Below, one piece after another: positions 43,807-60,467 of a DNA stretch of 64,000 nt. The notes beneath the pieces were generated by a model that saw only the letters and a list, made by a program, of their open reading frames with translations, ran no database searches and was not told the DNA's origin. Within the stretch, counting starts at the first letter, position 1; each line of letters begins with the position of its first letter. The stretch is taken from the NCBI GenBank assembly GCA_002383165.1, contig DFXK01000007.1:34403-98402 (forward strand). The letters run 5' to 3'. The position numbers and the translations under genes were made by a program. This DNA comes from Flavobacteriales bacterium UBA4110. Lineage in GTDB: Bacteria; Bacteroidota; Bacteroidia; Flavobacteriales; Weeksellaceae.

Positions 43807-43920
43807 GATTAATACTTTCTGATAATTTATTGATTGAAAGTAAAGTTTCTTTTTAATTTTTTTTCTTTAAATTACATCTGCTTTATTTAAGAAATAATGA
43901 ATGCCGAGAGTTTAGCAATT

Positions 43921-44235
43921 TTATCCAAATCTTCTAAAAAAGTGTTCGAAAAATGAACCTTTGCGTCACTTAAGGAGACAACTATTTTTTAGTTGTCTCT
44001 TTTTTGTAGCCATAAATATCTCTTTGTCAAACCTTTATGATTTGACTTTTAGTGTTCGACATTTTAAACGTAAAATGCTTAGTCTGTTTGAAAAAAACAG
44101 TCTGAAATTACCACAGTAGGCTTGTAGTCTACAATTGTTAAGTGTTCGAAATCTTCTTAAGGTTAGGGCTTTTTCTCTTTTTGATTTATTGTAGATCTTT
44201 GATATTAAAGATAATAATTCTAATATAATTTTACC
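43921..44235. repeat. Direct repeat copy 1 (serine-recombinase 3' end + downstream flank)
   Basis: Aligns with 54490-54800 and 58021-58305. The core 43967-44107 differs from copy 2 at ~6 positions by eye. Contains three AGTGTTCGAMA motifs (43941, 44051, 44141). Confidence 0.85.
43975..44005 (+). terminator. Intrinsic terminator inside repeat copy 1
   Basis: GAGACAACTA / TAGTTGTCTC 10-bp stem, 5-nt T loop, T6 tail. Confidence 0.7.
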
Positions 44236-44365
44236 TTTCTTTTATTTCCCATACTATCATTCTTGTCTGTAATAATAATTGCTTGTTATTAATAGATATT
44301 CTTCTGAAAAATCTAAATTCTGATAAAAAGACTTTTGGATTAAATTTTATTTCTAAATTTGCCAT
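44141..44365 (-). pseudogene. Decayed 3' remnant of a serine recombinase gene
   Basis: The reverse strand reads ...RRISINNKQLLLQTRMIVWEIKER*..IIIFNIKDLQ*IKKRKSPNLKKISNT*. This parallels the intact C-terminus ...RNISVEQAIIILAKNGI...LELLYLIAKNHNKSEERKIQNIKEISDN* at 58204. Confidence 0.5.
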
Positions 44366-44692
44366 ATGAATTTCTTGAGACTATTCCTTACAATCTATTT
44401 TGCGGTACTAACTGTATTACCGTGCAATGATGTCAAGGCACAGTCATCCGCTGGAGAATTCACAAAAATCTCCAGCTATTCAGAGGATTCTCACTCCAAA
44501 GACAAAGGAGATATATGTTCTCCACTTTGCATTTGTAATTGCTGCCAGATGACAGTAGGTTCATTTAAGATAGAGCCAATATTAAGTTTTCCTGAGCAGA
44601 TAAAATTGTATTATTCCAAGAAAATTCTTTTCCACAAGAATGATTTTGCTTATTTGGTGTATGACCAGATATGGCGACCGCCTAAGATTTAA
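44366..44692 (+). CDS. Small Cys-rich secreted/membrane protein (DUF6660-like) preceding the czc genes
   Basis: 108 aa with a signal/TM (LFLTIYFAVLTVLPCND) and the motif DICSPLCICNCCQ. Confidence 0.55.
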   Translation: MNFLRLFLTIYFAVLTVLPCNDVKAQSSAGEFTKISSYSEDSHSKDKGDICSPLCICNCCQMTVGSFKIEPILSFPEQIKLYYSKKILFHKNDFAYLVYDQIWRPPKI

Positions 44693-44849
44693 TTTTTATT
44701 TTTTTTTTGAAAGTTAACTTTCAAAATATGTTGTAAAACATTGCAATATCATTGCATTGTTTACAGCTCTACATTTGCTGTAACCTTATGTTTGGGAATT
44801 TCCAAACTTATTGTGTTGGCAGTTTCAATAAAAATTAAATCAAAATTCT

Positions 44850-47800
44850 GTGTTAGATAAAATCATAAAATTTAGCATCAAGAACAAGATTGTCATTGGT
44901 ATTATGACCTTGTTGTTGATTATATGGGGTATTTGGAGTGCAACCAAATTACCAATAGATGCTGTTCCCGATATTACAAATAATCAGGTACAAATAATTA
45001 CAGTATGTCCAACTCTTGCGGGACAGGAAGTCGAACAATTAGTAACATTTCCAATAGAACAAAGTATTGCAAACGTTCCAGATATTGAAGAAACTAGAAG
45101 TATTTCGAGATTTGGACTTTCTGTGATAACAGTTGTGTTCAAGGAAGATGTTGATATTTACTTTGCCCGCCAGTTGATTAGCGAGCAATTAAAACAGGCT
45201 GTAGAAGAGATTCCAAAAGGAGTCGGTACTCCGGAAATGGCTCCTGTAAGTACGGGGTTAGGAGAAGTTTACCAATATATCCTACATCCAAAGAAAGGAA
45301 GTGAAAATAAATATACATCCAAGGAACTAAGAACAATGCAGGATTGGATTGTTAGGAGGCAGCTTAATGGAACTCCGGGTGTGGCTGAGGTCAATAGTTT
45401 TGGTGGAGAATTAAAGCAATATGAAGTTGCAATAGACCCGAATCGTCTTAAAGCGATGGATATTAGTATTACGGATATTTTCACTGCTTTAGAAAAAAAT
45501 AATCAGAACACAGGTGGTGCGTATATAGATAAGAAGCCTAATGCCTATTTCATTCGTGGAATTGGTATTGTAACATCCTTAGAAGATGTTAAAAATATTC
45601 CTGTAAAAAACAATACCGGAAGTGTTCCTATTTTTATCAAAGATGTAGCAGATGTTCAATTTGGTAAAGCGGTAAGATACGGAGCAATGACCTATAACGG
45701 AAAGGTAGATGCAGTTGGAGGTATTGTGATGATGCTGAAAGGTGCTAATAGTAATGAAGTAGTGAATAACATCAAGGATAAAATTCCTACAATTCAAAAG
45801 TCTCTTCCAAACGATATAGTAATAGAACCTTTTCTGGACAGAACCGATTTGGTAGGTAGAGCTATCAGTACAGTTGAGAAAAATTTAATTGAAGGAGCGC
45901 TAATCGTCATTTTTGTACTAGTTATTTTCTTAGGTAATCTTAGAGCAGGTCTCATTGTGGCATCAGCCATTCCCCTTTCTCTTTTGTTCGCTCTGGGGAT
46001 GATGAATGTTTTTGGCGTTAGTGCCAATCTGATGAGTTTGGGAGCAATCGATTTTGGATTGATTGTGGACGGTGCTGTAATTATTGTCGAAGCCACGCTT
46101 CATCACTTAGGTTTAAGGAAAAGCACCAAGATGCTGACTCAATCTGAAATGGATGAAGAGGTTTTTCTTTCAGCGTCTAAAATTAGAAGCAGTGCTGCTT
46201 TTGGAGAGATTATCATCCTAATTGTTTACATCCCAATTTTAACACTTGCAGGCGTAGAAGGAAAGATGTTTACTCCAATGGCAAAAACAGTTGGTTTTGC
46301 TATTCTTGGAGCATTGATTTTGTCTTTAACATATATCCCTATGATGAGTGCTTTGTTCCTTTCAAAAAAAGTATCTCATAAAGAAACGTTCTCAGACAAG
46401 ATGATGAATAAGTTGCAGAACATTTACCAACCGATGTTGGAAAAAGCGATTAGATTCAAATATTGGATAGTTGGAGCAACTCTATCATTGTTTGTTGTCA
46501 GCTTATTGATTTTCAAAAATATGGGTGGCGAGTTCATCCCACAATTACAGGAAGGAGATTATGCCTTTCACTGCATTTTGCCACAAGGAAGTTCTCTTAG
46601 TCAGAGCATAGAAACATCTATGCAGGCATCCAGAATTATTAAAGAATTTGATGAAGTTAAAATGGTTGTTGGAAAAACAGGTTCAGCAGAAGTTCCAACT
46701 GACCCTATGCCTCAAGAAGCTACGGATTTGATTGTAGTACTTAAACCTCAGGACGAATGGAAAACCAAGAAATCTTATGAAGAATTAGCAGATGAAATCA
46801 GTGAAAAATTAGAAGTAATTCCCGGTGTTTTCTTTGAAAAAAATCAACCAATCCAGATGCGTTTCAATGAATTGATGACTGGAATCAGACAAGATGTAGC
46901 GGTTAAGATTTTTGGAGAAAATCTAGATTCTTTAGCAATTTACGCAGATAAAGTTTCAAAGGTTATTCAGACGGTAGATGGAGCAACGTCTCCACAAATT
47001 GAAAGGGTAAGTGGTCTTACCCAAATCAATGTGGAATATGACAGAACCAGAATGGCAAACTATGGATTGAATATCGAAGATGTTAATAATGCTCTGAGTA
47101 CAGCTTTTGCAGGAAAATCAGCTGGGCAGGTTTTTGAAAATGAAAGGAGATTTGATTTAGTGGTAAGATTAGACAGTCTTCACAGAACCAATATGGATGA
47201 TGTCAATACTCTAATGATTTCCACCAATTCCGGAGCGCAGATTCCTCTTTCTCAAGTTGCAAATATTAGCTATAAATTGGGGCCGGCTCAAATCAGCCGT
47301 GAAGAAGGAAAAAGAAGAATTGTAATTGGTTTCAATGTGAAAGGTCGTGATGTAGAAAGTGTTGTGAATGATATTCAGCAAAAGCTGGATAAGCAGATAA
47401 AACTGCCTTCAGGATACTATTTCACTTACGGAGGTCAGTTTGAAAATCTACAGGCTGCAAGTAAAAGGTTGTTGATTGCTGTTCCGGTTTCTCTCTTACT
47501 CATTTTTATGCTATTGTATTTTACATTCAGTTCTTTCAAACAAGCAGGATTAATATTTACGGCAATTCCGATGAGTGCAATAGGAGGTGTATTCGCATTA
47601 GTCATAAGAGATATGCCATTCAGTATCAGCGCAGGAATTGGATTCATCGCATTGTTTGGTGTTGCTGTTCTCAACGGTATAGTACTGATTGGAACTATCA
47701 ACCAATTGGAAAAAGATGGAGAAACTGATGTTTTAAAAAGAGTGATGGAAGGAACTAAGACAAGGCTTCGTCCGGTATTGATGACTGCTGCAGTAGCCTC

Positions 47801-49211
47801 TTTAGGATTTTTACCAATGGCTATCTCTACAGGAGCAGGTGCTGAAGTACAAAAACCTTTGGCAACTGTAGTCATCGGAGGATTGGTTACAGCGACTTTC
47901 CTTACATTATTCGTTTTGCCGATGTTATACATTATTTTTAATACAAAAATTAACAGAAGAAAATTGAAGGTAAAACCTTTGACGACTGTTATAATTTTTG
48001 GAATGCTGATGTTTGGTCAGACTCTTACAGCGCAAAGCAGAGCATTGTCTATAGAGCAGGCGACACAGATAGCTTTGGAAAATAATGACCAGATAAAATC
48101 AAAAGATTTGGACATCAAAGTTAGTGAAGCATTGAAGCCAACAGCGAACGAACTGCCTAAAATGAATTTTGATGCGTTACTTGGTCAGTACAATAGCCCA
48201 AAGTTCGACCAGTCATTTTCCATTTCGCAAAATATTCCGTTTCCGACTTTATTTAAAGCAAGAAAAGAACTTATTGCAGAAGAAATCAAAGCAAAGCAGA
48301 TTGATAAAGCTGTTTCTGCGAACGAACTCGCTAAACAGGTAAGAACCTATTATTATCAGATTGAATATTTACAATATAACCAATCACAACTTTCTTATCT
48401 GGATAGTTTGTATCAGGATTTTATAAGGATTGCAACTGTTAGATTCAAAGCAGGAGATATCAAGAAAATTGAAATCAACACGGCTGAAACACAAAGGGGT
48501 GAAATCAATCTTCTACTCAACCAAAACAAGGTTTATCTCAGCAATGCTTATCAAAATCTAAAAATTTTATTGAATACTAAAGATGAATTTCAGATTTCAG
48601 CTAATAGAAATTATGAGCCGTTAAAAGCAGAGTATATTTTGGATAGTACAGCTCTTGCTAATCATCCAACCGTGAGAGCTTTTTATCAGCAAATGGAAAT
48701 TGCAGAAAAAAATAAAGCAGTACAAAAGTCTCAAGGTATGCCGGAATTTAATATTGGATATACGAATCAATCGTTAATTGGTTTTCACACTGCCAACGGT
48801 CAGGAAAAATTTTATAATGCTGGAAATCGATTCAGTAGCGTAGGCTTAGGTGTCGCTATTCCTCTGACTTTCGGAGCAACAAAAGCAAGAGTTCAGTCTC
48901 TGGAATATGAAAAGCAAGCGGCAGAGACTAATGCAAAGTTTCAACAGAAGCAGTTGTCAGTACAGTTGGAGAATATGCTGAGTCAGTACCAGCAGAATGT
49001 TTTACAATATGATTATTATGTAAAGCAAGCTTTGCCAAATGCCGAAAAAATTGTGAAAGCAGGACAGCTTGGTTACAAGACAGGAGAAATCTCTTACGTG
49101 GAATATCTTTTTGCTTTACAGACAGCAACCAATATTCAATTAAAATACCTTGAGTCCATCCAACAGGTCAATCAAGCTGTAATTACTATTAATTCATTAA
49201 TCAATAAATAA
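44850..49211 (+). CDS. czcA: CzcA/CusA-family heavy-metal RND pump fused in frame to a TolC-like outer membrane factor
   Basis: 1453 aa, GTG start. Residues 1-~1037 are a 12-TM RND. They are followed by KLKVKPLTTVIIFGMLMFGQTLTAQS (signal-peptide-like) and ~410 aa of OMF repeats. Confidence 0.9.
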   Translation: MLDKIIKFSIKNKIVIGIMTLLLIIWGIWSATKLPIDAVPDITNNQVQIITVCPTLAGQEVEQLVTFPIEQSIANVPDIEETRSISRFGLSVITVVFKEDVDIYFARQLISEQLKQAVEEIPKGVGTPEMAPVSTGLGEVYQYILHPKKGSENKYTSKELRTMQDWIVRRQLNGTPGVAEVNSFGGELKQYEVAIDPNRLKAMDISITDIFTALEKNNQNTGGAYIDKKPNAYFIRGIGIVTSLEDVKNIPVKNNTGSVPIFIKDVADVQFGKAVRYGAMTYNGKVDAVGGIVMMLKGANSNEVVNNIKDKIPTIQKSLPNDIVIEPFLDRTDLVGRAISTVEKNLIEGALIVIFVLVIFLGNLRAGLIVASAIPLSLLFALGMMNVFGVSANLMSLGAIDFGLIVDGAVIIVEATLHHLGLRKSTKMLTQSEMDEEVFLSASKIRSSAAFGEIIILIVYIPILTLAGVEGKMFTPMAKTVGFAILGALILSLTYIPMMSALFLSKKVSHKETFSDKMMNKLQNIYQPMLEKAIRFKYWIVGATLSLFVVSLLIFKNMGGEFIPQLQEGDYAFHCILPQGSSLSQSIETSMQASRIIKEFDEVKMVVGKTGSAEVPTDPMPQEATDLIVVLKPQDEWKTKKSYEELADEISEKLEVIPGVFFEKNQPIQMRFNELMTGIRQDVAVKIFGENLDSLAIYADKVSKVIQTVDGATSPQIERVSGLTQINVEYDRTRMANYGLNIEDVNNALSTAFAGKSAGQVFENERRFDLVVRLDSLHRTNMDDVNTLMISTNSGAQIPLSQVANISYKLGPAQISREEGKRRIVIGFNVKGRDVESVVNDIQQKLDKQIKLPSGYYFTYGGQFENLQAASKRLLIAVPVSLLLIFMLLYFTFSSFKQAGLIFTAIPMSAIGGVFALVIRDMPFSISAGIGFIALFGVAVLNGIVLIGTINQLEKDGETDVLKRVMEGTKTRLRPVLMTAAVASLGFLPMAISTGAGAEVQKPLATVVIGGLVTATFLTLFVLPMLYIIFNTKINRRKLKVKPLTTVIIFGMLMFGQTLTAQSRALSIEQATQIALENNDQIKSKDLDIKVSEALKPTANELPKMNFDALLGQYNSPKFDQSFSISQNIPFPTLFKARKELIAEEIKAKQIDKAVSANELAKQVRTYYYQIEYLQYNQSQLSYLDSLYQDFIRIATVRFKAGDIKKIEINTAETQRGEINLLLNQNKVYLSNAYQNLKILLNTKDEFQISANRNYEPLKAEYILDSTALANHPTVRAFYQQMEIAEKNKAVQKSQGMPEFNIGYTNQSLIGFHTANGQEKFYNAGNRFSSVGLGVAIPLTFGATKARVQSLEYEKQAAETNAKFQQKQLSVQLENMLSQYQQNVLQYDYYVKQALPNAEKIVKAGQLGYKTGEISYVEYLFALQTATNIQLKYLESIQQVNQAVITINSLINK

Positions 49212-49212
49212 A

Positions 49213-50466
49213 ATGATGATAAAAGGAAAAATCATATATATCGCACTAATTTCTGTCTTACTTGCTAGTTGTGAGAAAAAAGAAGAAGCTGCCACAGAGA
49301 ATGCCGAAAAAGTATCTCAAGAAAGCACTCACGAAGAAGCACCTCAAACAATCGCCTCTCTAACTGAGGAGCAGATAAAAGCGGTAGGTATTACATTAGG
49401 CAAAGTAGAAATGAAAGAATTGACCTCTACTATCAAAGCTAATGGAGCGTTGCGTGTTCCCAACAATAATAAAGCAACTGTAACATCGCTTTATGGAGGT
49501 GTCATCAAAACACTAAATGTACAGATTGGAGATTACATCAAGAAAGGACAGGTCATTGCTACCATCTCTAATCCAGAATACATCCAGTTGCAGGAACAAT
49601 ATCTTACTGTAAACAACAGAATTATTTTTGCCGAACAGGAATATAGAAGACAAAAAGAATTGTTTGATAATGATGCAGGAGCAAAGAAAAATCTTCAAAG
49701 TTCCGACGCTGAACTCAAAACATTGCGTACTCAAAGAGCATCATTGTTAAGACAACTTCAAATGATGGGCATCAATCCTGGAAAAATCAATAATGGTAAT
49801 TTAAGAGCAGGATTGAGTATTACTTCTCCGATAAGTGGTACAATAAGTAATATCAATGCACAAATTGGAAGTTATGTAGATATTTCCGCACCTGTTGCTG
49901 AGGTTATAGACAACGGCTCGATTCATTTGGACTTACAGGTTTTTGAAAAAGATTTACCGAAGATGCGAGTTGGTCAAATTGTTCATTTCAAATTGACCAA
50001 CAATCCGGAAACCGAATATGATGCGAAAATATATAGCATTGGCTCATCATTCGAAAATGACAGTAAAACAATTTCAGTTCATTGTGCTGTAACTGGTAAC
50101 AAAGCTGGGTTGATTGATGGAATGAACATCACAGGGATTGTAAGTCTTGATAAAAGCACAACACCAGCAGTTCCAGATGAAGCCATCGTTGAAGCTGACG
50201 GAAAATATTATGTTTTCGTAAAAACCAACAAAAAGATTGAAGAACATAATGAAGCGGAAGGCGAACACGCAAATGAAAAGAAGATATCAGAAAAAGAATC
50301 AAAAACGATAAATTTTGAAAAAACTGAAGTTGTTAAAGGCTCTTCTGATATGGGTTATACTGCAATTACTACAGTAAATGCAATTCCTGCAAATATTGAT
50401 ATAGTAATAAAAGGAACATTTTTTGTGAATGCTAAATTATCTAATGCTGGAGAACACGAACATTAA
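49213..50466 (+). CDS. czcB: RND periplasmic adaptor (CzcB/HlyD family) lipoprotein
   Basis: Lipobox LLASC, barrel-sandwich and coiled-coil pattern, and a His/Glu-rich segment EEHNEAEGEHANEKK...GEHEH. Confidence 0.85.
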   Translation: MMIKGKIIYIALISVLLASCEKKEEAATENAEKVSQESTHEEAPQTIASLTEEQIKAVGITLGKVEMKELTSTIKANGALRVPNNNKATVTSLYGGVIKTLNVQIGDYIKKGQVIATISNPEYIQLQEQYLTVNNRIIFAEQEYRRQKELFDNDAGAKKNLQSSDAELKTLRTQRASLLRQLQMMGINPGKINNGNLRAGLSITSPISGTISNINAQIGSYVDISAPVAEVIDNGSIHLDLQVFEKDLPKMRVGQIVHFKLTNNPETEYDAKIYSIGSSFENDSKTISVHCAVTGNKAGLIDGMNITGIVSLDKSTTPAVPDEAIVEADGKYYVFVKTNKKIEEHNEAEGEHANEKKISEKESKTINFEKTEVVKGSSDMGYTAITTVNAIPANIDIVIKGTFFVNAKLSNAGEHEH

Positions 50467-50487
50467 CTAATTTCTAAAATATTAAAA

Positions 50488-51224
50488 ATGGCTTTAAAAG
50501 AAGAACTTGAAAAACAAGGAAATTGGCTTTTCAGATACAGAAGTTTCTTACCACTTATAGTTTTGGTTGTTGGTTTAGCGGTTTTAGTCCAAACTAGTTT
50601 AAAAAAAGAAAGTTTTGATTGTTCAATTTACTATGAACTGTTTTGTCTGTTTGTAAGCATCATTGGTTTGGGAATAAGAATTTATACCGTAGGTTTTACA
50701 CCTAAGAACACTTCCGGAAGAAATACAAAAGAAGGTCAGGTTGCAGATAAACTTAACACTACGGGTATTTATAGTATTGTTAGAAATCCACTTTATTTAG
50801 GAAACTTTTTTATGTGGCTTGGCTTGGGAATGTTTACTGAAAATGTTTGGTTCATTATTTCCTTTATTTTTTTTATTGGATTTACTACGAGCGAATCATC
50901 TTTGCTGAAGAGCAATTTTTGGAAAGAAAATTTGGAAATTATTACAGTTCTTGGGCAGAAAAAGTTCCTGTATTTATTCCTAATTTATCATTGTTTAAAA
51001 ATAACGAGTTGACTTTCAGTGTTCAAAAAGTATTACTGAAAGAGAAAAACGGACTCTTTGCACTGTTTTTAATCTTTACAGTTTTTGATTTAATCGGAGA
51101 AACTATTCAGAATCACGGTCATTATAATTTCATTTTTATAGTTGGTGGTTTTGTAACTATGATGCTATATGTGGCATTGAAAATTGTAAAGACCAGAACT
51201 GCTTTTCTTAAAAATAACAGATAA
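50488..51224 (+). pseudogene. ICMT/PEMT-like membrane methyltransferase, single frameshift in a T8 run
   Basis: ORF 50488-51012 (..GIYSIVRNPLYLGNFFMWLG..) and ORF 50847-51224 (YWIYYERIIFAEEQFLERKFG...) join if one T is added to the T8 tract at 50867-50874. Confidence 0.7.
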
Positions 51225-51250
51225 AATCAAATTTCAAAACACATAAAGTT

Positions 51251-52129
51251 ATGCTACTCAACAAAAGAATTTCAATTGGATACTTTGTTCGTCAAATCAA
51301 ATTTCAAATTTTACTTATTGTATTGTTTGCCTTTGTAATGGGCTTTTTGGATGATATTGCAGTGTTTAAGAATATTTCGATTCCATTAAGTATTCCAGCA
51401 CTTCTGGGTACGGCAGTTTCCCTGCTTCTAGCTTTTAGAACTGCACAATCGTATGAGAGATGGTGGGAAGCACGAACGGTTTGGGGGGCTATTGTGAATG
51501 ACTCAAGGTCTTTGATAAGATTGGTTAAACAATTTGCCACCAATAATGATAGAGAGACGAAGATATTCGCTGAAAGACAGATTATTTGGGTTTATGCTTT
51601 AGGTGAAGCTTTAAGAAAACAGACTTTTTCAAATAGAGTAAAAGAATACTTGCAGTCACATCAAATTGTGGCTGCGAATATTCCTAATGCTTTACTTGAT
51701 GAACACTCGAATCAAATCAGGAAAATTGCACAAGAAGGACATATTTCTGATTTTAAAGAAATTCAAATGAATGAGGTTGTTATGAGACTATGCGATAGTA
51801 TGGGGAAATGTGAAAGATTGAAGAATACAGTATTTCCTAGAGCATACAGTATTTTGCTTCATACATTGATTTACGTGTTTGCATTTCTACTTCCTTTTGG
51901 GTTAGAAGATTCTCAATTAACGGTTGAGATTGCAACAACGATAATAGTTCCAATCATCTTCATTGCCATAGAAAAGACCGCAATCATAATGCAAGACCCA
52001 TTTGAAAATACACCAGTTGATACCCCAATGACATCTTTGGCTCAAACTATAGAAATCAATATTCTTCAAATGATTGGCGAAGTAAACGTGCCAACAAAGA
52101 AAGAAAACACAAATTATTACGAAATGTAA
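51251..52129 (+). CDS. Bestrophin-family (UPF0187/YneE) anion channel
   Basis: 292 aa. LLAFRTAQSYERWWEARTVWGAIVNDSRSL is the family signature. Confidence 0.8.
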   Translation: MLLNKRISIGYFVRQIKFQILLIVLFAFVMGFLDDIAVFKNISIPLSIPALLGTAVSLLLAFRTAQSYERWWEARTVWGAIVNDSRSLIRLVKQFATNNDRETKIFAERQIIWVYALGEALRKQTFSNRVKEYLQSHQIVAANIPNALLDEHSNQIRKIAQEGHISDFKEIQMNEVVMRLCDSMGKCERLKNTVFPRAYSILLHTLIYVFAFLLPFGLEDSQLTVEIATTIIVPIIFIAIEKTAIIMQDPFENTPVDTPMTSLAQTIEINILQMIGEVNVPTKKENTNYYEM

Positions 52130-52155
52130 ATAGTAACCAATAATCATTAAATATT

Positions 52156-54192
52156 ATGGAACATAAACATCAATATGATTCTAACGGAAAACAACTATGT
52201 TGTTCCCCTCAAGAAGAAAAAATAGATAAAAATGCAAACAAGCTTTTAAAAGAAGAAAAGCACAGCTCAGAAGATGGACATAGTCACGGTCATAGCGACG
52301 ATGATGGTCACGACCACGGAAGTACGGATAAAACTACATTTGAAATGTTTTTGCCAGCCATTATTTCCTTAACTATTTTGTTAGCGGGGATAGGAATGGA
52401 TAATTTCTTTCCACAACAATGGTTTACTGGATGGGTAAGAATTGTCTGGTATGCCGCAGCTTATGCACCTGTAGGCTTACCAGTATTGAAAGAAGCATAC
52501 GAAAGTATTATGAAAGGTGATGTGTTTTCAGAATTTTTCCTGATGAGTATTGCAACCATCGGAGCATTTATAATAGGAGAATATCCGGAAGGAGTTGCAG
52601 TAATGCTGTTCTATGCAGTAGGAGAAGTTTTTCAAACTTTGGCAGTTACTAGAGCAAAAAGTAATATCAAAGCTTTGCTGGACCAAAGACCGGATGAGGT
52701 TACCATTTTAGAAAATAATACTCCCAAGACAATTAAAGCAAAAGAAGCAAAAATCGGAGATATTATTCAATTGAAATCAGGCGAAAAACTGGCTTTAGAC
52801 GGAGAATTGATAAGTGATTCTGCATCATTCAACACCGCTGCTTTAACAGGCGAAAGTAAACCCGATACTAAAAATAAGGGCGAAGTTGTTCTGGCAGGGA
52901 TGATTAATCTACAAACTGTAGCCCAGATTAAAATTACTACAGCATATGAAGACAGCAAGTTAAGTAAGATTCTTGAATTGGTTCAGAACGCGACTTCACA
53001 AAAAGCACCAACAGAACTTTTCATCAGAAAATTTGCAAGAATTTATACGCCAATAGTTGTTGTATTAGCTATTCTTATATGTGTAGTACCTTATTTTTTT
53101 GTAGATAATTACATATTTAGGGATTGGTTGTACAGAGCATTGATTTTCTTAGTGATTTCTTGTCCTTGTGCGTTGGTAATTTCAATTCCATTAGGCTATT
53201 TTGGGGGAATCGGAGCAGCTTCCCGCAATGGAATTTTATTTAAAGGAAGTAATTTCTTGGATAAGATTGCAGAAATCCAAAACGTTGTGATGGATAAAAC
53301 CGGAACAATGACGGAAGGCGTGTTTGAAGTCCAAGAAGTGAATATCAATCCTGCTTTTGACAAAACTGAACTACTTCAAATGGTCAATACATTGGAAAGT
53401 AATAGTACACATCCTGTAGCGACAGCTATTCATCAATATGTTGGAGAAATAAATCAGTCCCTAAACTTTCAGAACGTTGAAGAAATAGCAGGACACGGTC
53501 TGAAAGCAAACGTAAAAGGTGATGAACTGTTGGTAGGGAATTTTAAGTTAATGGATAAATTTAATGTTAATTACGATATTAATCCTGCTGATATTATTTA
53601 TACAGTTATTGCAATAGCTTATCAGGGGAAATTTGCGGGTTATATTACCATTGCTGACAGTATCAAAGAAGATGCAAAACTGACAGTAGAAAAACTGCAC
53701 AATCTAAATGTAAAAGCCACAATGTTGAGTGGAGATAAAGGTACAGTAGTAAAATATGTAGCGCAACAATTGGGAATTGATAATGCTTTCGGAGACTTAC
53801 TTCCGGAGGATAAAGTAAATAAAGTCAAAGAAATAAAATCTAAGAATGAAAGTGTAGCATTTGTTGGAGATGGTGTCAATGATGCGCCTGTGGTTGCTTT
53901 AAGTGATGTAGGTATTGCTATGGGAGGTTTGGGAAGTGATGCTACTATAGAAACAGCCGATGTGGTAATTCAGGATGACAGACCGTCTAAAATCCCAATG
54001 GCAATTAATATTGGAAAGAAGACAAAACAAATTGTCTGGCAGAATATTATTCTTGCTTTTGTTGTGAAAGCAATCGTTTTGGTTTTGGGAGCAGGTGGAC
54101 TAGCTACAATGTGGGAAGCTGTTTTTGCAGATGTTGGTGTAGCATTATTAGCAATCTTAAATGCTGTGAGAATTCAAAAAATGAAGTTTTAA
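52156..54192 (+). CDS. P1B-type heavy-metal ATPase (Zn/Cd/Pb-type motifs)
   Basis: His-rich N-terminus (HSSEDGHSHGHSDDDGHDHG), CPC in SCPCALVIS, DKTGT, GDGVNDAP and the terminal-TM ADVG motif. Confidence 0.9.
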   Translation: MEHKHQYDSNGKQLCCSPQEEKIDKNANKLLKEEKHSSEDGHSHGHSDDDGHDHGSTDKTTFEMFLPAIISLTILLAGIGMDNFFPQQWFTGWVRIVWYAAAYAPVGLPVLKEAYESIMKGDVFSEFFLMSIATIGAFIIGEYPEGVAVMLFYAVGEVFQTLAVTRAKSNIKALLDQRPDEVTILENNTPKTIKAKEAKIGDIIQLKSGEKLALDGELISDSASFNTAALTGESKPDTKNKGEVVLAGMINLQTVAQIKITTAYEDSKLSKILELVQNATSQKAPTELFIRKFARIYTPIVVVLAILICVVPYFFVDNYIFRDWLYRALIFLVISCPCALVISIPLGYFGGIGAASRNGILFKGSNFLDKIAEIQNVVMDKTGTMTEGVFEVQEVNINPAFDKTELLQMVNTLESNSTHPVATAIHQYVGEINQSLNFQNVEEIAGHGLKANVKGDELLVGNFKLMDKFNVNYDINPADIIYTVIAIAYQGKFAGYITIADSIKEDAKLTVEKLHNLNVKATMLSGDKGTVVKYVAQQLGIDNAFGDLLPEDKVNKVKEIKSKNESVAFVGDGVNDAPVVALSDVGIAMGGLGSDATIETADVVIQDDRPSKIPMAINIGKKTKQIVWQNIILAFVVKAIVLVLGAGGLATMWEAVFADVGVALLAILNAVRIQKMKF

Positions 54193-54489
54193 TAATAAGA
54201 AATTGTATACAATTTTTTAAATACCAAATGGCATTGGTGGCATTTGGTATGTGTAAACTTTAGCAAAACTTATAAATAAAGAGTAGTGTCTATCTAACTT
54301 ACACAGTTAGTTAGACATTACCAGAAAATATAAAAATATTGTAGATATTATTACCTATGATAATTTGTTAGAGCGTTTATACTTTACAATTGAACAAATT
54401 CAAAAGATATAAACATCGTTTCTGTTCTCTTTAAAAATCCATATTTAACTTATATTTTTAGATGATATTGATTTTCGCAAGCTCTGCAA

Positions 54490-54800
54490 GTTTATTCAAA
54501 TCCTCTACAAAATTTTTCGAAAAATGCACTGCCTCACTTAAGGAGACAACTATTTTTTAGTTGTCTCTTTTTTATAACCATAAATATCTCTTTGTCAAGT
54601 CCTTATGATCTGACTTTTAGTGTTCGACATTTTAAACGTAAAATGCTTAGTCTGTTTGAAAAAAACAGTCTGAAAGCGCCACAACTGGCATGTAATCTAC
54701 AATCCTTAAGTGTTCGAAATCTCCTTAAGGTCAGAGCTTTGTCTCTCCTTTACTTATTGTAGGTTTTTCTATTAAGTATAGTAGTTCTGATATGATTTTA
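54490..54800. repeat. Direct repeat copy 2 (serine-recombinase 3' remnant + flank)
   Basis: Near-identical core with copy 1 (54534-54674). Recombinase-tail remnant ...LKEISNT* on the minus strand from ~54706. Confidence 0.85.
54543..54573 (+). terminator. Intrinsic terminator inside repeat copy 2
   Basis: Same GAGACAACTA / TAGTTGTCTC hairpin plus T6. Confidence 0.7.
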
Positions 54801-54909
54801 AATTTAGTGATAGTTTTTTAAACAATAATTTGAGATAAGGACACTAAAGACTTTGTATATTTTACAAAGGAAATGCTTTAATTTACTTGTGGATTTTAAT
54901 TATTATCGT

Positions 54910-54921
54910 AATATTGCAATA
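54910..54921. promoter_or_regulatory. Candidate ArsR operator 1
   Basis: Perfect 12-bp palindrome ATATTGCAATAT, 15 nt upstream of the arsR ATG, embedded in the conserved TTATTATCGTNATATTGCAATATA. Confidence 0.6.
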
Positions 54922-54935
54922 TAAAAATATAAATT

Positions 54936-55265
54936 ATGGGACTTACTAAAACTGAAATATTCACAGATGAGCAAAACAGTCTAGCTTCTCTCTTTAAAGT
55001 TTTGGCACATCCTGCAAGAATCGCAATCCTCCAATACATCATTAATCAGAAAGCTTGTATCTGTAATGACCTAGTGGATGAACTTGGACTGGCACAGGCA
55101 ACTATCTCTCAACATTTGAAAGAACTGAAAAGTATCGGGATTATTCAAGGGACTATCGAAGGAAAATCTGTTTGCTATTGTATCGAAGATAAAAAATGGA
55201 AAGAGATTCAAGGATTGTTCAATCAATTTTTTGAACAAGATGTAAAAGTTGGGCAATGTTGCTAA
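54936..55265 (+). CDS. arsR: ArsR/SmtB-family metalloregulator
   Basis: LFKVLAHPARIAILQYI...CICNDLVDELGLAQATISQHLKELK (winged HTH with Cys pair); C-terminal GQCC. Confidence 0.85.
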   Translation: MGLTKTEIFTDEQNSLASLFKVLAHPARIAILQYIINQKACICNDLVDELGLAQATISQHLKELKSIGIIQGTIEGKSVCYCIEDKKWKEIQGLFNQFFEQDVKVGQCC

Positions 55266-55294
55266 CAACTTTTTTTATAATCTTTATTATCGTC

Positions 55295-55306
55295 ATATTG
55301 CAATAT
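55295..55306. promoter_or_regulatory. Candidate ArsR operator 2
   Basis: Same ATATTGCAATAT palindrome and flanking direct repeat, 32 nt upstream of the next ars gene. Confidence 0.6.
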
Positions 55307-55337
55307 ATAAATTAAATAATATCAAATATTAATTATT

Positions 55338-55802
55338 ATGAAACTATCAAAAATCAAAGCAATCTTACCTACACTGAACAATGTCGAATTTCAGTTAGAG
55401 AATGGAAAATTTGTTCCTGAGCATTTCCACGTTACAGAAATAGGGGTTATCACAAAGAATTTTATAGACTGCGGTGGCAATACCAGAAATGAAAAGGTTG
55501 TCAATTTCCAATTGTGGGATGCGAATGACTTTGAACATAGGTTGAAACCTACCAAACTCTTAGACATCATCTCACTTTGTGAGGACAAACTAGGAATCGA
55601 AGATTCAGAGATAGAGGTTGAATATCAAAGCGAAACTATCGGTAAGTATGATTTAGATTTTAACGGGAATAATTTTGTTCTGAAAAATAAACAAACTGCT
55701 TGTCTGGCAAATGAGGCTTGTGGAATTCCTGAAGGAAATCAAACTGTGGAATCATCTGATTCGAATAATACTTGCTGCACTCCCAAGTCAGGTTGTTGCT
55801 AA
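55338..55802 (+). CDS. DUF6428-like ars-operon protein with Cys-rich tail
   Basis: 154 aa. FVPEHFHVTEIG pattern and C-terminal NNTCCTPKSGCC. Position between arsR and the other ars genes. Confidence 0.55.
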   Translation: MKLSKIKAILPTLNNVEFQLENGKFVPEHFHVTEIGVITKNFIDCGGNTRNEKVVNFQLWDANDFEHRLKPTKLLDIISLCEDKLGIEDSEIEVEYQSETIGKYDLDFNGNNFVLKNKQTACLANEACGIPEGNQTVESSDSNNTCCTPKSGCC

Positions 55803-55816
55803 AAAAAGACTGCATT

Positions 55817-56308
55817 ATGGAAATCAAACCTATAACCAAAGACAACTTTTCGGAAGTAATCGAAATCTACAAACAAGGCTTGGCCACCAATATAGCCACT
55901 TTTCAGAACGATTCTCCACAATGGGAGGAATGGGATAACGGGCACCTAGATTTTTGCAGGATCAGTATTTACGATGATGAAAAAATGCTTGGTTGGACAT
56001 CTCTAACACCTGTTTCCAGTCGGTGTGTCTATTCTGGTGTCGCAGAAGTCAGCGTCTACGTCGCACAGGAAGCACGAGGAAAAGGAATTGGAAAAATATT
56101 GTTGAAAGAATTGATCAATCAGAGTGAAGAAAATGGGATATGGACATTGCAGTCTGGTATATTCGCTGAAAACGAAAATAGTATCAGGCTGCACGAGAAA
56201 TGCGGATTCAGATTAGTTGGCTACCGAGAAAAGATAGGTAAAAAGAATGGGGTTTGGAAAGACAATGTCCTTATGGAGCTTAGAAGCAAAAATGTCGGAA
56301 TAGATTAA
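55817..56308 (+). CDS. arsN: GNAT N-acetyltransferase (phosphinothricin/arsinothricin acetyltransferase-like, ArsN-type)
   Basis: Likely start MEIKPITKDNF at 55817. GNAT core AEVSVYVAQEARGKGIGKILLKELI...GFRLVG. Confidence 0.65.
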   Translation: MEIKPITKDNFSEVIEIYKQGLATNIATFQNDSPQWEEWDNGHLDFCRISIYDDEKMLGWTSLTPVSSRCVYSGVAEVSVYVAQEARGKGIGKILLKELINQSEENGIWTLQSGIFAENENSIRLHEKCGFRLVGYREKIGKKNGVWKDNVLMELRSKNVGID

Positions 56309-56334
56309 TAAACAATAAAACTTAAACAACGCCT

Positions 56335-56946
56335 ATGTATTCAGAATTAACAAATACTTTTGAACAATTACATTATCAAAACATCAGCGAGGAAAGAAAA
56401 ATGACATTGCAACCATTAATTGATTTTGTACAGCAAAAAATGGATGAAGGAAAAGATATTAATATCAATTTCATTTGTACCCATAACTCGCGCAGAAGCC
56501 ATCTATCACAAATCTGGGCACAAGCAGGAGCTGCTTATTTCAATATTCTAAACGTACATTGTTATTCGGGAGGTACGGAAGAAACAGCATTATTTCCAAA
56601 AGTGGTTGAGACACTCATTAATCAAGGCTTTAATATCTTCAAAATTGCAGACGGCAATAACCCCATATATTCTATTAAGTACAATGAAGATTCATCACCT
56701 GTAATTGGGTTTTCAAAAAGATATGATAGTCCGTTCAATCCTACGTCTGGGTTTGCAGCAATTATGACCTGTTCCCAAGCAGACGGTGGCTGTCCTTTCA
56801 TTGCAGGAGCAAAAAAAAGAATTCCTATCACATTTGAAGACCCTAAAATCTCTGATAACACACCACAGCAGTCACAAGTATATGCAGAAAGAAGCTTGCA
56901 GATAGCTTCTGAAATGTTCTACGTTTTCTCTAAGATTAAAAAATAG
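56335..56946 (+). CDS. arsC: LMW-PTP-type arsenate reductase / protein-tyrosine phosphatase
   Basis: CX5R loop ICTHNSRRS and downstream [10 protein letters not shown] cysteines; ars operon context. Confidence 0.7.
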
Positions 56947-56950
56947 TTTT

Positions 56951-57979
56951 ATGCAACCAAAACTAAAATTTCTTGACCATTATCTTACCTTATGGATATT
57001 CCTTGCAATGGCAACAGGTATTGGCTTAGGATATTTCTTTCCTGCAATTTCACAAATAACAAACGCAATGTCGGTAGGAACGATAAATATTCCACTGGCA
57101 ATAGGCTTGATTTTGATGATGTATCCTCCTTTGGCAAAAGTTGATTATTCATTATTACCTCAAGCTTTCAAAGATAAAAAAGTAATAGGTCTTTCGTTAT
57201 TTCTCAATTGGTTTGTTGGTACGATGCTGATGTTTGGATTAGCCGTTTTATTCTTACGAAATGAACCTGATTATATGACAGGATTGATACTGATAGGCTT
57301 GGCGAGATGTATTGCAATGGTCATTGTTTGGAGTGACTTAGCAAAAGCCAACAGAGAATATACCGCTATGCTGGTTGCATTGAATAGCATCTTTCAAGTG
57401 GTGTCTTACAGCCTTTTAGTTTGGTTGTTCATCAATATATTGCCCGCCAAATTAGGTCTAGCCAACTTCAATATAACCGTATCAATGAAAGATGTTACCG
57501 AAAGTGTATTGATTTATTTAGGTATTCCATTTCTAATAGGTTTTCTAAGTCGTTATCTTCTTATTAAATTAAAAGGTATAGAATGGTATAACAGAAAATT
57601 TGTTCCAAGAATATCGCCAATCACATTGTATGCTTTACTATTTACCATAATAATAATGTTTAGTCTGAAAGGAGATAAAATATTAGAACTGCCTATGGAT
57701 GTGATAAAAGTTGCCATACCGTTGGTTATTTATTTTGTACTAATGTTTTTTGTTAGCTTCTTTATCAACAAATCTTTAAATATACCCTATGATAAAAATG
57801 CTTCAATCGCATTTACTGCTACCGGCAATAATTTCGAATTGGCGATAGCAGTAGCAATAGCAGTTTTTGGCATTCACTCTCCACAAGCTTTCGTAGGTGT
57901 TATCGGACCATTGGTGGAAGTTCCTGTGCTTATCTTATTAGTGAAAACAAGTTTGTGGCTGAAGAAAAAATATTATTAA
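56951..57979 (+). CDS. acr3: ACR3-family arsenite efflux transporter
   Basis: 342 aa, 10-TM pattern. [24 protein letters not shown] start and [11 protein letters not shown] (conserved Cys). Confidence 0.9.
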
Positions 57980-58020
57980 TATAAAGACAATCTAAGAAAA
58001 CTAAAAGTATTTTTATATAC

Positions 58021-58305
58021 GTGCGTCGACTTACTTAAGTAGACAACTATTTATTAGTTGTTTACTTTTTTTAATCCATAAATATCTCTTTATTAAAATT
58101 TTATAGTCTGATTTTTTGTATTCGATATTTTAAGCGTAAAATGCTTATATTTTTTGAAATAAACAGTCTGAAATTGCTACAATAGGCTTGTAACATACAA
58201 TCATTAATTGTCCGAAATCTCCTTAATATTTTGGATTTTTCTTTCTTCTGATTTGTTGTGATTTTTTGCTATTAAATATAGTAATTCTAATATAGTTTTA
58301 GCTTC
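58021..58305. repeat. Direct repeat copy 3 (overlaps the intact recombinase 3' end)
   Basis: More diverged copy of the same unit. The non-coding flank is 58021-58203; the remainder is the last ~34 codons of the recombinase. Confidence 0.8.
58039..58072 (+). terminator. Intrinsic terminator inside repeat copy 3
   Basis: GTAGACAACTA / TAGTTGTTTAC stem (one G-U pair) plus T7. Confidence 0.65.
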
Positions 58306-59859
58306 ATCATCGCTTACCAAGATTCCATTTTTAGCCAAAATAATAATTGCTTGTTCTACTGAAATATTCCTATCAATGAAATTCATTTTTTCCAATATTT
58401 TTTTTGTTGCTTTTTTTGAGAATATTTTTGAGAATGCATGATTTAAATTTAAAGAAAGACTTCCTGTTTTATAGTCAATATCAATCGGAGGAATAAGATC
58501 CACCAGATGTTTTTTATCCGAAATATCAAACTCTGAAAATTTTTGAAAAATTTTGACTAATGCTTTATCTTTTATTTGATTACTGTTATCAATAGCTTTT
58601 AATTTATTAGAAATATTACGGCTTTCCATTTTAAGGTTTTTTGTATTGACTTGATTCTCTTTTTTTAATGCGTTATAATCATCAATTTTTAAAATTCCAG
58701 CTATAAGTAATTTTCTACCTTTGGAAAGAGTTAAATTCTCTTCTTTTATTTTTCTTTCTACTAAGTATTGAGTGTGTAAATAACTTGTCTTCTGAGTCTT
58801 TATATTCTGATCTTCCAATATTTTCTTAAATAATTCAATACAACTATTTGATAGTATTAATTCTTGAAGTTTATTTTGATAGCAATCATTAAGTAAAACT
58901 GCGCCAATCCTAATACTGCAGCCATTATTGCAATGGTAGTAGGGATATCTTTTCAGCTTACCTTTTGAAAAACTCCCAGTAAGTTTTTGACTACAAACAG
59001 GACAAATCAAAAAACCTCTAAGGAAAAACATTTCTCTTATATCATCTCTTTTAGCCGTAATTTTTCTTTCTGTATTAATCACAGACTGTACCTGATAAAA
59101 TAATGACTCTGAAATCAAGGGCTCATGTAGTCCCAGGATAATTTGGTTTTCATTAGTGTTATGCTTTATTAATATATGCCCACAATAAACTGGATTACGC
59201 AAGACTCTGAAAAAATACGATCTTGAACATATAAGTCCTTTATCATTAGCTATTCTATTAATTTCAGATATTTTATGGTCATTCATAGCAACTTGATTGA
59301 AAGCCCATTTTATAATTTCGGCTTCAGGCTCTTTAGGAACAATAGTTTTTTTTCCATCCATTAATGTCACATTGAGGAAACCTATGGGAGCTTTATTAGG
59401 ATATCTTCCCATTAATTTTGCCCGACGAATGCCATTAGAAACATTTTGAGATCTCCGAGTATTTTCTGCTTCTGGAAAAGCTAAATGTAGAGCTTGCAAA
59501 ATTATATTTTCTGGCACAGATAAATCAATGTATTGATCAATTGCCATTGGTGTCGTTTTATATTTTCGAAGTTTTTCAATCATCTCATAAGCATATTCGA
59601 TATTTCGACTAAATCGATCCCATTTTATAAATAATATGTTCTTATCTTCTGTTGGTTTCTTTTTAATTTCGGAGAATAATTCCTTCCATTTAGGCCTATT
59701 AAAATTTTTAGCAGAGTAGTCTTCGCGATAAATTCCTTTGACTTCAATATTGTTATATTTACAATATTTCAGTAATCGGTCTTCCTGATCCGGTAATGAG
59801 TAACCCTTTCTTTTTTGTTCGTCAGTACTTACTCTGACGTATAAGTAAGCTGTTTTCAT
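58204..59859 (-). CDS. Large serine recombinase
   Basis: 551 aa. AYLYVRVSTDEQ (catalytic Ser), recombinase domain, zinc ribbon CPVCSQKLTG...YYHCNNGC and a long coiled-coil C-terminus. Confidence 0.9.
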   Translation of the reverse strand: MKTAYLYVRVSTDEQKRKGYSLPDQEDRLLKYCKYNNIEVKGIYREDYSAKNFNRPKWKELFSEIKKKPTEDKNILFIKWDRFSRNIEYAYEMIEKLRKYKTTPMAIDQYIDLSVPENIILQALHLAFPEAENTRRSQNVSNGIRRAKLMGRYPNKAPIGFLNVTLMDGKKTIVPKEPEAEIIKWAFNQVAMNDHKISEINRIANDKGLICSRSYFFRVLRNPVYCGHILIKHNTNENQIILGLHEPLISESLFYQVQSVINTERKITAKRDDIREMFFLRGFLICPVCSQKLTGSFSKGKLKRYPYYHCNNGCSIRIGAVLLNDCYQNKLQELILSNSCIELFKKILEDQNIKTQKTSYLHTQYLVERKIKEENLTLSKGRKLLIAGILKIDDYNALKKENQVNTKNLKMESRNISNKLKAIDNSNQIKDKALVKIFQKFSEFDISDKKHLVDLIPPIDIDYKTGSLSLNLNHAFSKIFSKKATKKILEKMNFIDRNISVEQAIIILAKNGILVSDDEAKTILELLYLIAKNHNKSEERKIQNIKEISDN

Positions 59860-59981
59860 AAATGTGACGTAATTAACATCTAATTTAAAAACATTTAAGT
59901 TAGGTGTTTATACATCATCCATACACTACAGACCAAATAATGAAACTAACAAGAATTTTTAATGATACTCATGAAAGTGTT

Positions 59982-60467
59982 TTATAGACTCTGTTTGAGA
60001 GTATCACTGTCGGATAGTTTAATTAGATTTCCAATAGCGTCAACATCTTCGAAATGTATAGCAACAGGAATTACTTCATATCCTAATAAATAAGAAGTTT
60101 TAACTCGATGACGGCCGTCCTCGAATTCAATTTTTTTCTCAAATACGTTGAAATGTATTTTTGGAGGATCAAGATATTCCTTATTGATCCAATGTTGTAT
60201 GATTCTATATATTCTATGATTATTATTACTTTTAATATTCTCAGGAAGAAATAAAGATGTCATATCTACCTCTCTAAAATCAGAATTTTTAACCAATTCC
60301 TCGGTTCTTACAAAATGTATTTTAAAAATACCTTCTTCCGGAAGTAAGTCTGAAGCTTTTATAGAGGAACTGTTTTCATTGACAGCCCAGTAAGGTTTAG
60401 GTGTTAATAATATTATTTCTTCAACTGTTTTTGATAAGAATTTTTTTATTAAATATGCCATAATCAA
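59982..60467 (-). CDS. Small ParB/Srx-fold-like protein
   Basis: 161 aa. FEDGRHRVKTSYLLGYEVIPVAI resembles the DGxxR core of ParB-like nuclease/DUF262 domains. Assignment is by motif only. Confidence 0.4.
   Translation of the reverse strand: MIMAYLIKKFLSKTVEEIILLTPKPYWAVNENSSSIKASDLLPEEGIFKIHFVRTEELVKNSDFREVDMTSLFLPENIKSNNNHRIYRIIQHWINKEYLDPPKIHFNVFEKKIEFEDGRHRVKTSYLLGYEVIPVAIHFEDVDAIGNLIKLSDSDTLKQSL

Follow-up and report, generated by a model that had tools for sequence, protein, structure and literature searches.

Composite islands of the staphylococcal cassette chromosome mec (SCCmec) type contain tandem modules and the large serine recombinases (LSRs) CcrAB, and their recombinase-less modules often carry ars, cad or cop genes. 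The LSRs of phages (the integrases of phiC31, Bxb1 and A118/LI) use single sites inside protein genes. Accretion of elements in tandem, with formation of cis-mobilizable elements (CIMEs), has been described for ICESt1 and ICESt3 of Streptococcus thermophilus and related tandems, which use tyrosine integrases and short identical attachment (att) cores; older members without integration genes can be carried along by an intact neighbour (PMC5704250). According to work on Islander-type islands, tRNA genes (tDNAs) are known as targets of tyrosine-family integrases alone (PMC4383910). Of 937 tycheposons of Prochlorococcus, the 27 that lack a tyrosine recombinase are reported to have a large serine recombinase in its place (bioRxiv 10.1101/2020.12.28.424599). 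The locus described here lies in 64,000 nt of Flavobacteriales bacterium UBA4110 (contig DFXK01000007.1, positions 34,403 to 98,402; this whole stretch is referred to as the window), where three direct repeats separate a czc region, an ars operon and a serine recombinase gene with defence cargo. These repeats are very likely the recombinase-proximal ends of three integrative elements of one family, stacked head to tail, with the czc and ars units presumably having lost their recombinases.

A repeat search of the 64 kb found the three direct repeats in the same orientation within 15 kb, at 43962-44200, 54530-54768 (89%) and 58028-58266 (69% ungapped). By gapped BLASTN, copies 1 and 2 are 85.9% identical over 319 nt (E-value: 9e-104), whereas copy 3 is 78% identical to copy 1 (324 nt, E-value: 5e-69) and to copy 2 (271 nt, E-value: 5e-56), which agrees with the original prediction, made by eye, of three repeats with the third more diverged. 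No fourth copy was found by BLASTN across the window. With a DNA profile of the element family the copies extend over 43929-44311, 54498-54800 (E-value: 2e-64) and 58033-58386; copy 3, unlike copies 1 and 2, runs on into the recombinase gene. The terminator hairpins predicted earlier hold up on folding (43972-44002, 54540-54570 and 58037-58067; free energies -18.8, -16.8 and -14.7 kcal/mol; z -5.3 to -6.0), with perfect arms according to the repeat search, and each is followed by a T run on the plus strand. The AGTGTTCGAMA motifs noted at the same time (GTGTTCGA at 43942, 44052, 44142, 54620 and 54710; GTATTCGA at 58118) are likewise present and correspond to TTCGAAC boxes conserved throughout the family. 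On the minus strand copies 1 and 2 end in the codons KKISNT and copy 3 in KEISDN, each followed by a stop. These codons had been assigned to the 3' end of the recombinase gene; they are indeed present in each copy but belong to a separate small open reading frame (ORF). The repeats match no Rfam family, and the repeat unit has no terminal inverted repeats.

The protein encoded at 58204-59859 on the minus strand has the conserved domains PF00239 (E-value: 5e-23, residues 4-153) and PF07508 (E-value: 4e-12). Its zinc ribbon (PF13408) scores 21.7 bits, just under the cut-off of 25.3, and is present in the precomputed annotation of many homologues. The motif YVRVSTDEQ and the zinc-ribbon cysteines C286, C289, C310 and C314 are invariant in an alignment of 12 recombinase sequences. 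On this domain content (Resolvase, Recombinase and zinc ribbon) the 551-aa ORF is classified as a large serine recombinase, and Pfam thus bears out the serine recombinase into which copy 3 had been read to continue. It is neither a Ccr nor a XisF protein by NCBIfam (CcrB: 84.6 bits, cut-off 900; XisF: 93.7, cut-off 375).

Nearly all of the 2704 homologues of this recombinase are ~496 aa long and align to only 87-90% of the 551-aa query. In the canonical loci of Chryseobacterium sp. JV274, C. culicis and Elizabethkingia anophelis, the recombinase gene is followed by an overlapping ORF of 52-60 aa with the consensus MNFIDRN(V/I)SVEQAI..ILELLYL..K. Judged from these alignments, recombinase and small ORF are fused in frame in the window protein. 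Such fusion occurs only in the clade of the window and loci L002 and L008; the ATG of the small ORF has become ACG in L002 and L008, and a separate ATG is kept in ~35 other loci. A DNA profile made from five loci aligns with copy 1 from the hairpin across nearly all of the small ORF, the frame of which is broken by frameshifts and stops, and with copy 2 through the distal two-thirds, where the small ORF is truncated. Neither this profile nor tblastn found recombinase-proper sequence in copy 1 or 2, contrary to the proposal that a recombinase gene decays there after ~40-75 codons; a weak upstream peptide similarity, considered as a possible remnant, was unsupported by either method and was rejected. 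The small ORF has no Pfam or NCBIfam match. Its AlphaFold model (pLDDT 80) is a helix-turn-long-helix, for which a Foldseek search of the PDB returned nothing under E = 1. Many of its 50-65 aa homologues (P0121-P0171) are named 'PTS sugar transporter subunit IIBC' at NCBI; this label is probably a propagated misannotation, as it has no Pfam or NCBIfam support.

The combination of small ORF, core and hairpin is not peculiar to the window. Approximately 90 related loci were compared, including 7 fetched through protein look-ups and 80 through a metagenome scan. In nearly all of them, down to ~45% protein identity, an end unit lies directly downstream of the recombinase gene in fixed orientation and consists of the small ORF, a ~175-bp core with two TTCGAAC boxes and a covarying terminator hairpin. 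The family ranges over Flavobacteriia (Chryseobacterium, Elizabethkingia and Flavobacterium) and Sphingobacteriia. Over 54 distinct units, the best-conserved features are the two TTCGAAC boxes (at least 0.99), which match tRNA T-loop DNA, a TTTATGG/A-run block and the hairpin with the junction TCTCCTT-AAG-T. The hairpin stem covaries: over 40 distinct stems, its 12 pairs are formed in 82-100% of cases, and seven positions show compensatory changes (pair 6 is A-T in 20 stems and G-C in 19). Read in the recombinase sense, an A run always precedes the hairpin, and on the other strand this is the T run. The cargo that lies 5' of the recombinase is mostly anti-phage defence genes (Gabija-like, nSTAND, AbiC and DUF4365). 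The family is nearly absent from viral contigs, with 3 weak-to-moderate matches in 2.9 million. No description of this recombinase or element family was found in the searchable literature; papers on the Riemerella 10K island and on the integrative and conjugative elements (ICEs) of E. anophelis deal with tyrosine-integrase elements or mention serine recombinases in passing.

The window shares only 58033-59863 with L002 (94.6% identity), L008, L085 and L010. Because this shared stretch stops at the outer edge of the hairpin (58033) on one side and 4 nt ahead of the start codon (59863) on the other, the recombinase module can be regarded as a distinct block whose cargo can be exchanged. Copies 1 and 2 are 88-89% identical to the hairpin end of L008, and are thus as near to it as to one another. 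The L008 unit (10848-11937) is itself a mosaic: its recombinase is 95% identical to that of the window, its core has an 88-nt internal duplication and its hairpin end is closer to copies 1 and 2 than to copy 3 (88-89% versus 86%). Recombinase-less copies of the unit also occur in L022 (with DUF3604/PPIase/HupE/sulfatase cargo), L024, L035 and L053. A solo partial copy in Chryseobacterium sp. ERMR1:04 (L001), with no recombinase nearby, was considered as an empty attB site; it carries the element-specific hairpin and core and was reclassified as a decayed remnant.

What lies beyond the hairpin could be scored in 51 distinct loci. A complete tRNA gene is found there in 33 of them (17 isoacceptors), on the opposite strand and with its 3' end beginning 3-4 nt from the hairpin stem. 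Three more loci adjoin a transfer-messenger RNA (tmRNA) gene (Rfam RF00023) in the same geometry, for a total of 36, and 8 adjoin, by a strict criterion, a ~65-bp sequence here called ext, which also stands to the left of copies 1 and 2 (43885-43952 and 54457-54523). L002 and L008 adjoin ext as well and were not scorable in this way. The joints are with tRNA or tmRNA genes or with ext, not with the 3' end of rlmH (orfX). Only a tRNA 3' fragment stands beside the hairpin in L055 (the 3' half of a tRNA-Met, ~11850), L096 (16 nt of tRNA-Arg(acg), ~11835) and L053 (6748-6798), which suggests that elements also settle beside pieces of tDNA that other islands have displaced. The terminator of a second, native copy of the tRNA-Lys gene in L003 differs from the hairpin, which is therefore DNA of the element and takes the place of the displaced tRNA terminator. 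Measured from the stem, the T-loop box begins at 17 (+/-1) nt in tRNA and tmRNA joints and at 20-22 nt in ext joints (offsets: L020 +5, L053 +4, copy 1 +4, copy 2 +1). The attP half-sites of serine integrases are ~5 bp longer than their attB half-sites, and the outward shift of the box on the element arm resembles this difference.

The far end of the elements is best seen in L020. The near end of this element has a tRNA-Arg(tct) gene at the hairpin; ~9 kb away, the far end has a 15-nt copy of the tRNA 3' terminus beside the native terminator and a second native tRNA-Arg gene, and ext lies inside the element directly after the 15-nt copy. In L002 and L007, ext is present at both ends, and the solo hairpins of L053, L035 and L022 are followed by ext-like sequence. 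The positions in L020, L002 and L007 identify ext as the far-end terminus of the elements, which makes copies 1 and 2 attP-like joints at which one element meets the next head to tail. As reconstructed from L020, a circular attP would read ext, tRNA 3'-end mimic, CTT and hairpin, which is the architecture of the window joints at copies 1 and 2. Large serine integrases use simple attP and attB sites of ~40-50 bp with a 2-bp crossover; here the putative crossover is narrowed to the block of at most 15 nt common to both L020 ends. The conserved flank as a whole had been put forward as an attachment region; that role fits the joint at the outer edge of the hairpin together with ext, but not the entire flank. 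The ext copies of joints 1 and 2 are not of one type, the first being matched by the near ext of L002 and the second by its far ext.

Copies of ext in the window and in L002, L007, L010, L015, L019, L020, L022, L026, L027, L035 and L085 vary in a coding-like manner when read in the direction of the recombinase (..NTF[LVIM]xDLxK[IL]A..), L002 having a 3-nt indel; there is no consistent start codon, and the frame ends after ~15-25 codons. This variation, together with a longer ORF at the far end of L007, had raised the possibility that ext is the displaced 3' end of a host protein gene. That explanation was ruled out because ext lies inside the element in L020, after the tRNA fragment, and because the longer ORF in L007 is mere read-through of a terminator hairpin.

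The proposed organization of the array, read on the plus strand (the sense of the tRNA), is as follows. A left-hand element, E0, would end in ext1 (43885-43952, minus strand; ext profile E-value: 3e-11), which has a TTCGAA box at 43945-43950. Joint 1 (43953-43971) consists of a degenerate tRNA 3'-end mimic (CCTTTGCGTCA, near the 3' end of tRNA-Arg(tct)) and CTT, and a putative crossover region is placed within it. The czc unit, E1, would begin with hairpin 1 (AAGGAGACAACT / AGTTGTCTCTTT) and its T run (43972-44007, plus strand), a predicted intrinsic terminator. It is followed by core 1 (44008-44136), which in the profile of the 54 distinct units has the conserved block CCATAAATATCTCTTT (44010-44025) and TTCGAAC box 2 (44055-44059), and by small-ORF remnant 1 (44137-44318, minus strand), nearly full length, with TTCGAAC box 1 (44145-44149) in its 3' end. 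The E1 cargo (44366-54192, plus strand) encodes a DUF6660 protein, a CzcA-OEP fusion, a membrane fusion protein, an ICMT/PEMT-like protein (split), a bestrophin and a P-type ATPase; these annotations, and that of the ars cargo, were made in the original prediction and agree with Pfam. E1 would close with ext2 (54457-54523, minus strand; E-value: 7e-10; TTCGAA box 54516-54521), whose nearest relative is the far-end ext of L002. Joint 2 (mimic CACTGCCTCA and CTT), hairpin 2 and its T run (54524-54575, plus strand) would serve both as terminator of the E1 cargo and as outer end of the ars unit, E2. Core 2 (boxes at 54623 and 54713) and small-ORF remnant 2 (distal ~2/3, 54705-54800) fill 54576-54800 on the minus strand. 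The E2 cargo (54936-57979, plus strand) consists of arsR and genes for a DUF6428 protein, a GNAT protein, a 203-aa protein and ACR3, with an operator-like palindrome from 54897. At joint 3 (57980-58036) ext3 is at most a degenerate remnant, and the far end of E2 appears decayed. E3 would begin with hairpin 3, its T run and core 3 (58037-58203, plus strand; box 2 at 58121). These are followed by the fused gene, in which the recombinase proper stands upstream of a small-ORF part at 58204-58386, and by cargo at 59982-63992 (minus strand), a 161-aa protein and an nSTAND3 NTPase split by a stop at 61980, which continues past 64000.

In the proposed model, a complete element, followed in the direction of the recombinase gene, would begin with ext and cargo and continue with the large serine recombinase, the small ORF, the core and its two TTCGAAC boxes, and the hairpin. 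Usually a tRNA or tmRNA gene would have its 3' end 3-4 nt short of the hairpin, and the far end would bear a short tRNA 3' copy followed by the internal ext. The hairpin and T run would substitute for the displaced tRNA terminator and, in the array, would also terminate the cargo operon of the upstream unit. The array would arise by serial site-specific insertion, the recombinase acting on the distal hybrid site of the resident element. E3, presumably the newest unit, keeps its recombinase, and the older czc and ars units would have lost theirs by deletion. These CIME-like passengers could move only with the array in cis or as cargo of a conjugative element. Tandem accretion, already part of the original prediction, is supported by the linkage of repeat and recombinase in ~90 loci, the breakpoints at the hairpin edge, the ext far ends and the recombinase-less units elsewhere, and the czc and ars units are best described as recombinase-less, CIME-like derivatives. 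E1, which has no integration genes, keeps both ends (hairpin 1 and ext2), and E2 keeps them only partly. The loss of the recombinase from both units is the parsimonious reading but is not proven.

Several observations weigh against this model. There is no tRNA gene in the window or in the same-species loci, and the anchor of the window array is thus unseen. With no ext profile match at joint 3, E2 is not cleanly bounded, and the far end of E3 lies outside both the window and the same-species loci. Delimitation by a tRNA fragment comes from L020 only, most far ends lying beyond the 10-kb flanks; within these flanks the ext profile found no further far ends, and a search for tRNA 3' fragments succeeded only in L020. 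No czc or ars genes were found on the cargo side of recombinase-bearing relatives. The attP site of a canonical large serine integrase is not known to recombine with attL or attR, and a hybrid site could therefore receive an insertion only through a relaxed enzyme or by another route.

The same-species assemblies, seven loci found by exact-protein look-ups, likewise offer no sign of recent movement. In four of them the covered part of the block is collinear with the window at 99-99.9% identity, and in a fifth, essentially the same strain, which covers 34366-54692 only, the covered part is unchanged. L090 has lost 57102-61546 and L093 is rearranged after 55994, in both cases with breakpoints away from the repeats. 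Strains with only one or two modules had been suggested as a check; among the seven loci none has a breakpoint at a joint or has lost or gained a single unit. As the assemblies are collinear and the breakpoints of the variants lie off the repeats, the block is fixed in the species. Nothing in these data supports current site-specific activity or independent movement of the czc and ars units, and the earlier suggestion that the recombinase of the third unit mobilizes the first two in trans is unsupported. Under canonical rules the internal attP-like joints would be inert with each other, and any movement would be of the whole array, from one outer site to the other, or of a surrounding conjugative element. 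In L093 (11059-12795) the ars region is joined at 55994 to a 95.7% identical copy of the DprA-like gene and an 89.5% identical copy of the 161-aa ORF of E3, and a sigma-54 activator and kdp genes follow the recombinant junction.

The same array could have been formed by another route, with joints that are intact attP sites: homologous (Campbell-type) recombination within the conserved 1.8-kb recombinase module, or arrival as a pre-formed co-integrate. This is a distinctly less probable alternative. It agrees with the complete L020-type architecture of the joints at copies 1 and 2, with canonical LSR rules, which disfavour recombination of attP with attR, and with a module so sharply bounded that the window and L002 share it at 94.6% identity while their cargo differs on both sides. 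The mosaic unit of L008, with its E3-type recombinase, hairpin end of the copy 1/2 type and 88-nt duplication, shows that recombination inside the unit does occur. However, units only 78-89% identical would be a poor substrate for homologous recombination, and staphylococcal CcrAB, an LSR, builds arrays site-specifically; the data themselves do not discriminate hybrid from intact joints. By analogy with SCCmec arrays, insertion into the hybrid site is favoured over either of these routes. It is unlikely that the czc and ars units never had a recombinase and are primary non-autonomous cassettes captured and moved in trans by relatives with a recombinase, like satellites or SCC-like elements that lack one. 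Their compactness would suit such cassettes (the ars operon, 54896-57977, is 96 nt from the end unit and 57 nt from hairpin 3), as would the recurrence of recombinase-less units in L022, L024, L035 and L053 and the fact that metal-resistance genes were never seen on the cargo side of a recombinase. The small ORF, frameshifted in copy 1 and truncated at different points in copies 1 and 2, nevertheless indicates decay rather than design; ext3 is decayed, and loss or gain of a single unit is not seen among the seven same-species assemblies.

Two further origins of the repeats are less probable still. Three copies in one orientation within 15 kb might be thought to come from local segmental duplication of a single recombinase flank, with czc and ars inserted later between the copies. 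This is very improbable: the copies are only 78-89% identical, and outside relatives are as close or closer (94.6% identity between copy 3 and L002; 88-89% between copies 1 and 2 and L008). The proximity of copies 1 and 2 to L008 and the match of ext1 and ext2 to different ext copies of L002 (near and far) disfavour duplication in place, and the ext-hairpin architecture recurs in unrelated genomes. A generic dispersed element unrelated to recombination, such as a repetitive extragenic palindromic (REP) sequence, a miniature inverted-repeat transposable element (MITE) or a common terminator, would account for the strong terminator hairpin and for the solo copy of Chryseobacterium sp. ERMR1:04, but can hardly be credited. 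The original prediction would have been undone by a repeat occurring genome-wide apart from recombinase genes; instead, there are only three copies in 64 kb, the unit lies downstream of a recombinase in fixed orientation in ~90 loci, and terminal inverted repeats are lacking. A strict 27-nt core pattern matched one locus among 185,579 species genomes, although this pattern is too strict to describe the distribution of the family.

The homology of the ars operon to that of L010 is confined to 54896-57977. A 29-nt repeat with an internal palindrome (54900-54928 and 55284-55312, 93% identity) stands upstream of arsR and of the DUF6428 gene, and its two copies are likely duplicated ArsR operators. 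In E1, 44850-49211 encodes a 1453-aa fusion of a complete CzcA/AcrB-type resistance-nodulation-division (RND) pump with an outer-membrane-factor (OEP) domain; the length of this fusion is kept in L088-L090 and L093, and it is split in L091 and L092. PADLOC gave only a weak mad8 match in the E3 cargo. Past the window edge, L090 12045-20260 (equivalent to window 61546 to ~69700) encodes Gabija-like proteins (OLD/TOPRIM ATPase and UvrD helicase) and a Shedu-like SduA_C protein, and E3 is therefore a multi-system defence island. A number of window genes are split (50488-51224, 60501-63992, 29491-31804 and 36267-40164), including fragmented TonB receptor and DnaE2/ImuB-like genes. In same-species assemblies the ICMT/PEMT-like protein (245 aa) and, in L088, nSTAND3 (1243 aa) are intact. 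The splits could be real decay or indel errors of metagenome assembly.

At the left of the window, conjugative-transposon genes (250-6622; DUF4138/TraN-like, TraO and TraQ) are followed by genes for Dam, RadC, DUF932, SSB and DprA-like proteins. A homologue of the RadC-DprA block stands directly after the hairpin-ext joint in L010, and SSB and DUF932 genes stand after the joint in L073. The tra genes and these placements indicate that the array probably lies within an ICE or adjoins one. A tyrosine recombinase gene and, directly after it, an IS91-family (Y2) transposase with a zinc-binding domain (26016-28159) make up a mobile element of its own in the stretch from the tra genes to copy 1. No IntI gene stands beside the array, the adjoining recombinase being of the serine type, and the repeat unit, with its small ORF and conserved boxes, is unlike the attC sites of integron cassettes.

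The features of the family as a whole lead to a more tentative proposal, somewhat less likely than not, which is put forward with reserve. The family's serine integrase may specify tRNA and tmRNA genes through the universal T-arm and 3' terminus (TTCGAA box), not through a unique site, and so a single enzyme lineage could land after almost any tDNA. It would bring its own terminator, by which the tRNA transcription unit is repaired, two T-loop decoy boxes and a small helical protein that perhaps sets directionality, and the window array would be a snapshot of stacking and recombinase loss. What we infer here is that the recombinase recognizes the T-loop box and that the small ORF plays such a part. 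If the recombinase does recognize the T-arm, nature would offer in it a serine integrase with many targets and a terminator of its own, attractive for genome engineering since every genome has T-loop sequences. It would also aid island-finding software, which now looks for tyrosine integrases at tDNAs, and would bear on how genes for defence and metal resistance spread in Chryseobacterium and Elizabethkingia. The window array would then illustrate how stacking and recombinase loss turn resistance operons into fixed passengers. For the window itself, accretion and CIME formation explain why czc and ars operons lie between repeats beside a defence island, probably inside a conjugative element.

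The array shares with SCCmec islands an LSR, modules between repeated integration-site sequences, metal resistance and insertion at the 3' end of a preserved gene. It differs in that the recombinase is not a Ccr protein, the targets of the family are the 3' ends of tRNA and tmRNA genes rather than rlmH, and the repeated unit is ~330-400 bp with small ORF, T-loop boxes and terminator, compared with an SCC repeat of ~15-20 bp. Like the phage integrases, the recombinase combines Resolvase, Recombinase and zinc ribbon domains, and the box lies 3-5 bp further out on the element arm; unlike them, the family has defence or resistance cargo, no phage genes and next to no presence in viral contigs. Tycheposons are also cargo-carrying integrative elements, with tandem-repeat junctions detected in cultures (bioRxiv 10.1101/2020.12.28.424599). 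Compared by description only, they belong to another phylum, overwhelmingly use tyrosine recombinases and have not been described with the features of the end unit. As in Islander-type islands, an intact tDNA is adjoined, a displaced 3' copy of it marks the far end (15 nt, L020) and target switching is frequent (PMC4383910). The family thus pairs intact tDNA and displaced 3' fragment (L020; 36 of 51 loci adjoin tDNA), while the window array itself has no tDNA in view. It differs from the Islander type in using a serine recombinase and in supplying its own terminator. The likeness to ICESt1-type accretion and CIMEs lies in head-to-tail arrays with internal att sites, in which older members lack integration genes and keep their ends (PMC5704250). 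The differences are that the enzyme in the window is a large serine recombinase, that the internal joints look like complete attP sites and that cis-mobilization is here only a candidate process. In the array a known process, accretion and CIME formation, is seen in a new, SCCmec-like variant. The more novel finding is the tDNA-targeting serine-recombinase family, apparently undescribed, the target of which had been credited only to tyrosine integrases.

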